From positions 1-64,000 of the IMG/VR virus record IMGVR_UViG_3300017716_001697: a DNA stretch of 64,000 bases. One strand, given 5' to 3'. This DNA is from a virus (lineage: Duplodnaviria > Caudoviricetes). Position numbers and translations under genes: made by a program. Below are positions 9,992 to 33,780 of the stretch, piece by piece. Positions within the stretch are counted from its first letter, which is position 1. Each line of letters opens with the position of its first letter. Under the pieces are notes generated by a model. That model saw nothing but the letters and a program-made list of their open reading frames with translations, did not search any database and was not told where the DNA came from.

Positions 9992-10016
9992 AGTTCGATT
10001 CTCTATCCGGGTACCA
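9939..10016 (+). tRNA. tRNA-Val(TAC)
   Basis: Loop CTTACAA, CCA. Confidence 0.8.
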
Positions 10017-10021
10017 AATTA

Positions 10022-10176
10022 CGCGAGATAAAGACCGTTTGGGACGGGGACCGGATTGTTGACCGGCGTCGGATAAAGCAACGAGCTGCGGTGACTTATA
10101 GAAGGGCCCTTTTATTTGTTGCTTAAAATTTCAGTACGCTCCGACTTCAGTGGTTCGATTCCACATCTTGCGGCCA
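10022..10176 (+). tRNA. Giant tRNA-Asn(GTT)-like with ~90-nt variable-arm insert
   Basis: Acceptor CGCGAGA/TCTTGCG plus GCCA; loop TTGTTGA; T arm; folded insert. Confidence 0.55.
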
Positions 10177-10180
10177 AATT

Positions 10181-10277
10181 TTGTTTAGTGTAATGGTAGC
10201 ACGGGGAAGTCCGAGACACGGAAGTGGAGTAGGCAATCAAATGCCCTGAGGTGGTTCGATCCCACCAGCAAATTCAA
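10181..10277 (+). pseudogene. tRNA-like element with replaced anticodon arm
   Basis: D arm AGTGTAATGGTAGCAC and T arm GGTGGTTCGATCCCACC; no CCA. Confidence 0.45.
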
Positions 10278-10278
10278 T

Positions 10279-10621
10279 TTCAACATTCGAGCTAACGCTG
10301 GCAACAGAGGAAGTTCGGGACAAGCGCCAAGGGCGTGTGGGAGAGTGGTTATTTGATGGGGCATAGTGTCGGCCGGCTCAAATCTAATACGGAGTTGTTA
10401 GAAGCCAAGCAGAGATTTATCATCAAGCTAGATCCGCAAGGATGACAAAAGGTTCCTGAGACGGGTTCAACTCCCGGATGCTCCACCAAATAACTACTTG
10501 TTACACCACCGTGATACAGCTTGCAACACAAACAGAACCTGGGAACTCTTGGCTTATAGGTTCGGGTTGTGGCAAAGATTAATGTTAGCATAGAACAGAA
10601 TCCCGGCTACGGAATGTTGAA
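10279..10621 (+). ncRNA. rnpB: RNase P RNA (type-A catalytic domain)
   Basis: P1, P2 (GCTAAC/GTTAGC), P3, CR-I GAGGAAGTTCGGG, P5 CAAGC/GCTTG, P6 GCCAAG/CTTGGC, P15-16 with GGT, CR-IV AGATTAAT, CR-V ACAGAATCCCGGCTA. Confidence 0.85.
10358..10488 (+). ncRNA. Ala-acceptor tRNA/tmRNA-like domain nested in the RNase P RNA
   Basis: GGGGCAT/ATGCTCC with G3-U70, ACCA, GAC-GGGTTCAACTCCC T arm. Confidence 0.7.
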
Positions 10622-10629
10622 AACTTATA

Positions 10630-10707
10630 TGCTCGTCTACGCTAATTGGTAGTGCGACCTGTTTCAAACACAGATGGTTCTCGGTTCGAATCCGAGGTCG
10701 AGCACCA
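10630..10707 (+). tRNA. tRNA-Leu(CAA), short variable loop
   Basis: Loop TTCAAAC; 5-nt variable region; CCA. Confidence 0.75.
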
Positions 10708-10711
10708 CATT

Positions 10712-10804
10712 TGATTTATAGACAAACGGAATTCATGTACAGATACTTGATCAGCGGGCCCTGCAACGCTGTAAGTGACAACGCTGTATCTTCTCCCTAA
10801 ATCA
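10712..10804 (+). ncRNA. 'stem-TA...C-stem' element
   Basis: TGATTTA-TA...C-TAAATCA with inner helices. Confidence 0.4.
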
Positions 10805-10813
10805 TTTTATTAC

Positions 10814-10902
10814 GGGTTGTTAATGGGACGACTTAAGTCGTGTACTATGTATGCGCCGTCAGACCGGTCTTACAGTTGGTTCAAGTCCGACGCAACTCTC
10901 CA
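10814..10902 (+). pseudogene. tRNA-like element, atypical core
   Basis: Acceptor GGGTTGT/GCAACTC, T arm, CCA; no canonical anticodon arm. Confidence 0.45.
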
Positions 10903-30052: not shown

Positions 30053-30526
30053 ATGAACAAGATATTCGCACTATCGATTGTTATAAGTTTATTGTGCCAT
30101 ATCGGTGTTGTTATATCTGCGATTACACCGCAAGAACCGATTAGTACTAGTGTTACAGCGCCAGAGAACCGAATGGCAATTAAGCTATTACCACCAGAGC
30201 AGTTAGCAACGATACGACCAGCATTTTTAAAATCTGATGAATATTATAAGCCGACGCACCATCCGTATAGCAAAGAAGGGATTTGTGAAGGCAAGGATAA
30301 GAATTACATCGGTATTGGCATGATGATTCAGCCCGGAACACGGTTGGTAATTAATGTGCCAGAGATGTATCCTGCGTATCGAGCAGGCATTCGGGTAAAT
30401 GATGTCATTGTGGACCCGTACGGTCCTGTAATTGACCGTGCCGGTTATATTGAATTCGGGGTAGAACGGGACAATGTTATATCTCGTGTACGAATCAAGG
30501 CAGAAAAGATATGTTATACTGGATAG
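30053..30526 (+). CDS. Membrane-anchored PDZ-like protein
   Basis: N-terminal hydrophobic segment; PAYRAGIRVNDVI. Confidence 0.55.
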   Translation: MNKIFALSIVISLLCHIGVVISAITPQEPISTSVTAPENRMAIKLLPPEQLATIRPAFLKSDEYYKPTHHPYSKEGICEGKDKNYIGIGMMIQPGTRLVINVPEMYPAYRAGIRVNDVIVDPYGPVIDRAGYIEFGVERDNVISRVRIKAEKICYTG

Positions 30527-30554
30527 TTGACACCTTAACGCTAAGTAGTATAAT
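30527..30554 (+). promoter_or_regulatory. sigma70 promoter of tmRNA
   Basis: TTGACA-N16-TATAAT. Confidence 0.75.
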
Positions 30555-30560
30555 AAAGGT

Positions 30561-30848
30561 ACTGTTGTAATCCCTTCGAAGCGAAGGCAGGCAAGACGCG
30601 GGTTCGAATCCCGCCAGGTCCACCAAAATCATATTCGAAAAATAAAATCCATAACACGTTATGGTGTGAGTATGATTCTGATGGGCCTGCTCCGGAAATC
30701 GATTGCGTGAGATAGTAGAGACGGCAACACGAGAGGCGATGGACGTAATCCAAGCAAAACTAGTAAATGCAAACGCAGATACATTCGCTCTTGTAGCCTA
30801 AGAAACTCAAAGCTGAGGTAGGACTTACCTTATAACCAAAACAACCAA
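30561..30848 (+). ncRNA. ssrA: Circularly permuted two-piece tmRNA
   Basis: Acceptor piece ends GACGCGGGTTCGAATCCCGCCAGGTCCACCA (30625); hairpin spacer; coding piece starts GGGCCTG (30683); tag ANADTFALVA* at 30769-30801. Confidence 0.92.
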
Positions 30849-30849
30849 T

Positions 30850-30872
30850 GGGGGCTTCGGCCCCTATTTTTA
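30850..30872 (+). terminator. Terminator after tmRNA
   Basis: GGGGC-TTCG-GCCCC plus T-run. Confidence 0.85.
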
Positions 30873-33704: not shown

Positions 33705-33780
33705 GCGCCTTTAGCTCAGTTGGTAGAGCAGCGGATTCTAAATCTGTAGGTCAGGGGTTCGAGTCCCCTATCGCGCACCA
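33705..33780 (+). tRNA. Amber-suppressor tRNA (CTA)
   Basis: GCGGA-TTCTAAA-TCTGT anticodon arm; canonical D and T arms; CCA; two acceptor mismatches. Confidence 0.8.

Follow-up and report, generated by a model that had tools for sequence, protein, structure and literature searches.

The window examined here comprises the first 64 kb (64,000 nucleotides) of IMGVR_UViG_3300017716_001697 (Duplodnaviria; Caudoviricetes), a virus record of 364,576 bp that is complete and has direct terminal repeats. On its plus strand, at positions 10279–10621, lies a gene that is nearly certainly homologous to the catalytic domain of bacterial type-A ribonuclease P (RNase P) RNA; at the place of the lost specificity domain (10344–10498), a tRNA-like RNA is nested in it. 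An earlier note on this DNA had proposed that a phage-encoded RNase P RNA of type-A descent and without a specificity domain is present here. This identity is borne out by covariation in the core helices, by the invariance of the conserved elements CR-I, CR-IV and CR-V, and by the existence of relatives that score above the threshold of the Rfam model RF00010. As an overall explanation, we consider it fairly probable that the gene specifies a working minimal RNase P RNA from which a passenger RNA can be excised.

Comparison with RNase P models, which the earlier note had named as a check, gave support only in part. An Rfam scan of the window at gathering thresholds returned nothing besides tRNAs and a permuted transfer-messenger RNA (tmRNA), with no RNase P match, and a search of the whole genome with RF00010 (gathering score 100) found no match. 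A permissive cmscan of positions 10000–10900, in contrast, produced an end-to-end match to RF00373 on exactly 10279–10621, with 27.8 bits and an E value of 5.6e-6 for the 901 nt searched, the gathering score of this archaeal model being 84. The alignment takes in P1–P3, GAGGAAGUUC, GCAA, the P15/P16 arm, AGAUUAAUG and ACAGAAUCCCGGCUA, whereas 137 specificity-domain positions of the model are replaced by an unalignable 197-nt insert, made up of the stub, the slot stem and the tRNA-like RNA that are described below. Since Rfam alone gives no more than this score, the case for identity rests on the relatives found in phage tRNA arrays.

These relatives were collected by using a 15-mer of CR-V as bait, which led to 80 viral loci, about half of them holding homologues. 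R1, a covariance model derived from 15 short forms, finds 39 members with scores from 244 down to 26 bits, recovers full-length, intermediate and short relatives alike, and assigns 176.7 bits to the window gene. All family members are located in phage tRNA arrays. The closest relatives, at loci L029 and L012, are 87–89% identical across the full length, while most others match only positions 1–66 and 222–343 of the window copy, two segments that are adjacent in these 194–233-nt forms lacking the central insert. With RF00010, the RNAs of L019 and L067 (on contigs of 204 and 360 kb) score 168.3 bits, as full RNaseP_bact_a RNAs above the gathering score, and the intermediates L073, L015 and L025 score 65.5, 52 and 44 bits, respectively; L033 (31.7 bits), L047, L065 and the window are instead matched by RF00373, in the range of 26–32 bits. 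In L025, 23 P18 positions of the model are deleted, and L015 and L009 keep a hairpin at the P18 site. A strict pattern of the minimal form was found in 16 viral contigs and, among 185,579 species genomes, in a single contig, an 11-kb metagenome-assembled one with a tRNA array. No match was obtained by blastn against 50,697 GenBank phage records with the window region, a full-length phage copy or a short form. At two further loci, L022 and L048, the RNase P RNA gene is interrupted by a long insertion, so that CR-I and CR-V lie 799 and 573 nt apart as compared with 139–293 nt in other members; the inserted sequences look protein-coding and are perhaps a homing endonuclease or an intron.

In the 39-member alignment, 91.4% of 1831 pair cells hold standard pairs as compared with 74.9% after shuffling (0 of 500 shuffles reached the observed value), and a control in which partners were slid gave 30–40%. 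Changes on both sides are seen in 37 of 52 pairs. Within the lineage formed by the window, L029 and L012, compensatory substitutions occur in P1, P2, P3, P5, P6, the stub, the slot stem and P16, and there is not one substitution in CR-I, CR-IV, CR-V, J5/15, L15 and P15. At the level of sequence, these comparisons demonstrate that the catalytic-domain fold (P1–P5, the P6 pseudoknot and P15/P16) is conserved and that purifying selection acts on the catalytic-core nucleotides. The core elements of a type-A RNase P RNA that the earlier note had named could all be placed within the gene, whose parts are as follows.

10279–10621 (+): whole gene, consisting of a 212-nt minimal type-A-like core and a 131-nt nested passenger
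10279–10288 / 10612–10621 (+): P1; 9 of 9 modelled pairs change on both sides, 93% of cells paired (39 members)
10291–10296 / 10584–10589 (+): P2; at least 15 different complementary helices in the family
10298–10307 (+): P3, a 3-bp hairpin closed by a GCAA tetraloop; two-sided changes in 3 of 4 modelled pairs, 98% of cells paired
10307–10321 (+): CR-I, GAGGAAGUUCGGGAC; contains the 5′ strand of P4, aligned to the model
10312–10320 / 10601–10608 (+): P4, 8 bp with bulged U10315; 98.6% of cells paired
10321–10325 / 10519–10523 (+): P5, CAAGC with GCUUG; 4 of 5 pairs change on both sides
10326–10333 / 10546–10553 (+): P6 pseudoknot, GCCAAGGG with CUCUUGGC in the P16 loop; at least 10 complementary versions
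10337–10343 / 10506–10509 (+): stub helix GUGG/CCAC, with the junction GAG; two-sided changes in all 4 pairs, 99.3% of cells paired
10344–10353 / 10489–10498 (+): slot stem, AGUGGUUAUU with AAUAACUACU, 10 bp; G10345–C10497 is U–A in L012
10354–10357 (+): UGAU leader preceding the nested tRNA-like RNA; the same in five aligned nested copies, at both insertion sites
10358–10488 (+): nested tRNA-like RNA, 131 nt, alanine-type
10499–10509 (+): 3′ junction UGUUACA and 3′ strand CCAC of the stub; family consensus CGUUAAA-CYAC
10523–10571 (+): J5/15 GCAA, P15, P16 and L15; GGGU and GCAA invariant in 14 diverse members
10527–10531 / 10567–10571 (+): P15; 4 of 7 pairs change on both sides
10535–10540 / 10558–10563 (+): P16; 8 of 9 pairs change on both sides
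10564–10567 (+): L15 GGGU, with the GGU that matches the substrate-CCA-binding loop; binding predicted
10576–10584 (+): CR-IV, AGAUUAAUG; aligned to J18/2 of the model, runs into the 3′ strand of P2, no substitutions in the lineage
10595–10609 (+): CR-V, ACAGAAUCCCGGCUA; holds the 3′ strand of P4 (10601–10608), invariant

The pairings of P2, P4, P5 and P6 were counted by script on the same alignment. In P2, all six pairs change on both sides and 86.4% of cells are paired, as compared with 64.7% after shuffling (0/500); the pair G10291–C10589, for example, has become C–G in L012. The corresponding values are 95.5% as against 70.0% for P5 (0/500), which reads CUUGU/ACAAG, CUCC/GGAG, CUGGC/GCCAG and others in the relatives, and 94.8% as against 67.0% for P6 (0/500), where seven of seven pairs change on both sides and compensatory changes at 10327/10552 and 10332/10547 are found even within the lineage. 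In P1, similarly, T or C at 10287 is matched within the lineage by A or G at 10613. The P3 loops of the relatives are of the GNRA or UNCG type, both pairs at the base of the slot change on both sides, and P15 and P16 are 96–97% paired. A crude swap test was not significant for P16, but the model-based alignment of 39 members does support this helix. CR-I shows almost no substitutions family-wide, besides its complete identity in the window, L029 and L012. P4 runs from A10312–U10608 through a G–C and a U·G pair to the bulged U10315 and then through five pairs ending with A10320–U10601, a layout (3 bp, U, 5 bp) that presumably looks like that of P4 in Escherichia coli. Position 10314 takes part in a U·G pair in 24 members and in a C–G pair in 11; as the helix is otherwise near-invariant, the support that covariation lends to P4 is thin. 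U10601 of CR-V, the partner of A10320, is extra with respect to the RF00010 consensus. Three local helices that RNAalifold put in the place of P2, P4, P5 and P6 were rejected, as they had weak or no covariation and the poorest pairing of all (0/4; 5/5 but 73% paired; 1/7).

The absence of P18 and of a CR-II-type sequence, on which the earlier note had also remarked, is confirmed for 10279–10621; only GCAA stands between the 3′ strand of P15 and CR-IV, with no P18. The stub, a helix of 4 bp with conserved junctions on either side and a hairpin distal to it, marks the place at which a specificity domain would leave the core in full-length RNase P RNAs. Its sequence (GURG-GAG ... CGUUAAA-CYAC) was considered as a vestige of P11 with CR-II/CR-III, which was not confirmed, the likeness being one seen by eye only and cmscan giving no alignment. 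A comparable observation was made at L017 (3978–4279, minus strand), where the 113-nt cargo in the slot contains AGGUGAAAG ... GGCAAACUCCACC. These are, by eye, like CR-II/CR-III, so that this cargo is possibly a vestigial specificity domain; cmscan of the L017 cargo gave no alignment to the CR-II/CR-III parts.

In the RNA nested at 10358–10488, the acceptor stem comprises 7 bp and includes G3·U70; a T arm and two small hairpins that covary are also present, and the 3′ end carries A73 and an encoded CCA. Both ends of the tmRNA model match this RNA in a permissive cmscan (16.5 bits). A fold of five homologues revealed compensatory changes in the T stem and in the two hairpins. Taken singly, the sequences of the passenger and of the tRNA-like elements next to it folded with no greater stability than shuffled controls. 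Only seven copies of the passenger were found in total, looser searches included, which gave, apart from unrelated tmRNA-like 3′ ends, a single further nested copy among 120 metagenome hits. One homologue, at 773–905 of L017, is a free-standing gene of the tRNA array, 3 kb away from the RNase P RNA of that locus. In L009 and L005, a passenger with a homologous stem and the same UGAU leader is placed at the P18 site. The RNase P RNAs at these two loci (L009:2232–2747 and L005:7768–8203) each contain two passengers: the specificity-domain slot is occupied by a cargo of 124 nt borne on a 20-bp stem, and the P18 site, beyond a small hairpin, by the tRNA-like RNA. A reading of the passenger as a small tmRNA is not favoured: the possible tag frames differ among homologues or cross a covarying hairpin, and no gene for SmpB was found in the phage genome.

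The slot itself accommodates diverse sequences. Cores near-identical to that of L012 bear unrelated cargo on the same stem base, of 143 nt in L020 and 118 nt in L039, and further L012-like cores hold 129 nt (L044) and 124 nt (L009). In L004, L050 and L023 the slot contains a 41-nt AT-rich hairpin, and in L079 merely CGAAAG. The slot cargos of the L012-like cores do not recur elsewhere in the fetched DNA, and ARAGORN detected no tRNA or tmRNA in any of the slot cargos. About half of the family retains the full core but has nothing more in the slot than a capped stub of 2 bp or a small hairpin. Because near-identical cores hold unrelated and non-recurring cargo, the core does not need the latter, which is better regarded as a passenger than as a substitute specificity domain. 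As far as can be read from the aligned loci, the site of the lost specificity domain is a slot for passenger RNAs. It is tempting to speculate that RNase P cuts out the alanine-type passenger, which would yield both an alanine-accepting small RNA and an active, non-covalent two-piece minimal RNase P. The gene would then unite ribozyme and substrate in one naturally occurring RNA, with an exchangeable cargo dock at the lost specificity domain and, in some phages, at the P18 site; we offer this as a tentative proposal, which may well turn out otherwise.

Catalytic activity of the RNA on phage pre-tRNAs is likely. That it serves the 5′ maturation of the phage's own tRNAs, with host RnpA as a possible partner, is plausible, since the CCA is encoded in 42 of the 43 tRNA calls of the window (3800–56400) and the base at −1 is U in most of them, their leaders ending with AU or UU right before +1. 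L15 and J5/15, which recognise the encoded CCA and U(−1), respectively, are both invariant in the family members examined. The earlier note had further suggested that non-canonical tRNAs are the substrates; no specific link of the ribozyme to such tRNAs was found. Its statement that the window lacks an RnpA gene holds for the whole 364,576-bp genome, where a search with PF00825 found none, nor was one found in five other carrier phage records. The partner could possibly be host RnpA or another protein, or the RNA could be active alone.

We envisage that the gene is transcribed together with the tRNA array and that the flanking tRNA-type genes, when processed, define the ends of the RNA. The transcript would fold as a type-A catalytic domain with P1–P5, the P6 pseudoknot and P15/P16, and would remove the 5′ leaders from phage pre-tRNAs, probably with host RnpA, as the phage encodes none. 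Substrates would be contacted through pairing of the L15 GGU with the encoded 3′ CCA and through J5/15 at U(−1); since no specificity domain is there to read the tRNA elbow, the enzyme would have to rely on these catalytic-domain contacts. The passenger would most likely be excised by an RNase P cut at G10358 and 3′ trimming to the CCA. Attack by RNase III may come first, on a helix of about 21 bp to which the slot stem, the pairing between leader and CCA end and the acceptor stem would contribute. Excision would leave a two-piece ribozyme (79 + 133 nt) held together by P1, P2, P4, P5, P6, the stub and the slot stem. As to expression, metatranscriptome libraries of two studies hold contigs with a short-form relative, one of them 196 nt long, in which RNA ends are not visible; as such libraries may contain DNA, they provide a weak hint that the family is expressed. 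The RNA-library runs share only one fifth of the words of the gene, and their contigs represent the short-form relative rather than the window phage. Scans for promoters and terminators around the gene gave no excess over chance.

Several observations weigh against a working ribozyme with an excisable passenger. The Rfam score of the window lies far below the gathering threshold. No RNA-library match was listed for the 2-kb stretch examined in this phage. The UGAU leader can, as read from the sequence, pair with the ACCA end at three of four positions, which could impede cleavage of the passenger by RNase P. Finally, catalytic-domain-only constructs are less efficient in vitro than the full-length RNA (PMC5839562).

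The absence of RnpA from the phage and the loss of the specificity domain would also suit a decoy or regulator, an RNA that keeps the RnpA-binding face, titrates host RnpA and thereby shuts down or redirects host tRNA maturation. The conserved regions CR-IV and CR-V belong to the catalytic domain, the part to which bacterial RnpA binds in the holoenzyme structure of Thermotoga maritima, and this too would speak for a decoy. A sponge, however, needs neither an invariant or covarying L15 GGGU nor the adenosines of J5/15, the bulged U and the P6 pseudoknot. Moreover, in some phages the RNase P RNA found in this context has remained complete and canonical, and the roughly 40 tRNAs of the phage itself need RNase P. 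We hold such a role to be unlikely. Alternatively, the RNase P-like fold may be a carrier, a stable and processable scaffold for passenger RNAs in which catalysis on tRNA is secondary or lost. This would account for the many unrelated cargos in the slot and for the presence of one passenger at two different peripheral sites. On the other hand, a carrier without cargo, as about half of the family would be, is not expected to preserve the whole core, and the catalytic-core nucleotides are invariant, so that we give this alternative little credence as well.

A decaying remnant of a captured host rnpB, or a chance likeness, might be suspected from the score under the Rfam threshold and from the large parts of the canonical RNA that are missing. 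It is contradicted by the covariation data: the family comprises no fewer than 39 members, every helix shows compensatory changes among them, and 0 of 500 shuffles reach the observed values. The single metagenome-assembled contig with the strict minimal-form pattern among the species genomes likewise argues against it. We regard this explanation as very improbable. A functional minimal RNase P RNA with an excisable passenger is the reading that we retain.

The gene is present in a single copy in the phage genome and lies inside an array of about 30 tRNA genes that extends from 3.8 to 15.7 kb. A tRNA-like element ends 6 nt upstream of P1, and a tRNA-Leu gene (10631) begins 9 nt downstream. All sampled words of the stretch are present in a freshwater metagenome run. 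Just upstream of the ribozyme, two elements (10022–10177 and 10182–10272) have a T arm, acceptor-like ends and oversized middles; the former has G3·U70 and a GCCA end, the latter is without CCA, and both were missed by ARAGORN and by the Rfam tRNA model. Farther away, at 33705–33780, there is a tRNA with a CUA anticodon, that is, an amber suppressor (labelled Pyl by ARAGORN); TAG may therefore be a sense codon in parts of the phage genome. The permuted, two-piece tmRNA lies at 30513–30870 (RF01850, 145 bits) and has the tag ANADTFALVA; its betaproteobacterial type may hint at the host.

The phage RNA shares with bacterial type-A RNase P RNA (E. coli M1, rnpB; RF00010) CR-I, CR-IV and CR-V, P1–P5, P15/P16, P6, the P4 with its bulged U, the L15 GGU and the J5/15 GCAA. 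Unlike RF00010 RNAs, it is devoid of the specificity domain (P7–P14, CR-II and CR-III) and of P18, its core has 212 nt as compared with the 367 positions of the model, and the extra U in CR-V lengthens P4. It further differs from the bacterial RNA in being virus-encoded, in having no RnpA gene alongside and in the foreign RNA nested within it. The passenger, for its part, resembles the tRNA-like domain of tmRNA in its GGGGC...GCUCCACCA acceptor stem, G3·U70, T arm and encoded CCA, but has only 131 nt, no tag frame consistent among homologues, no ARAGORN call and no SmpB in the phage; it is also distinct from the separate permuted tmRNA of this phage.

Most of the specificity domain is lacking in archaeal RNase P RNA of type T as well. 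This RNA of Thermoproteaceae (Pyrobaculum; RNaseP-T in Rfam) is a natural, diminutive RNase P RNA that standard models miss (PMC3579882). The phage RNA is likewise natural, diminutive and missed by standard models, but type T belongs to an archaeal lineage with archaeal protein partners, whereas the phage RNA stems from bacterial type A, the marks of which are the L15 GGU internal loop, the P6 pseudoknot and a bacterial-type CR-IV. The size reduction in the phage RNA is independent of that in type T. The catalytic domain of the E. coli RNA cleaves on its own; for this it depends on a pairing of the P6 type, whereas it can do without P18 when the specificity domain is absent (PMC5839562). This construct, Eco CP RPR (Mao et al. 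2018), has the same set of parts as the phage RNA; it is a laboratory truncation, whereas the phage RNA is the product of a conserved gene that occurs in nature, and has a covarying stub and a cargo slot.

To our knowledge, RNase P RNA has been regarded as a cellular and organellar ribozyme. A full-text literature search that included papers on huge phages did not turn up any account of an RNase P RNA encoded by a virus. New here are the picture of a cargo slot, the second insertion site of the passenger and the pattern of substitutions within the lineage. The family would represent a natural, bacterial-type RNase P that consists of the catalytic domain only, with parts that match those which truncation experiments found to be sufficient. 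Such a natural minimal ribozyme offers a system for asking how much of RNase P a cell needs, and how substrates are chosen when the tRNA elbow is not read. The cargo slot marks a site that tolerates large insertions, which may be of use for engineering, and may point to RNase P RNAs that are split in nature. For the phages themselves, the finding suggests that, beyond carrying tRNA genes, large phages may take over a step of tRNA maturation.
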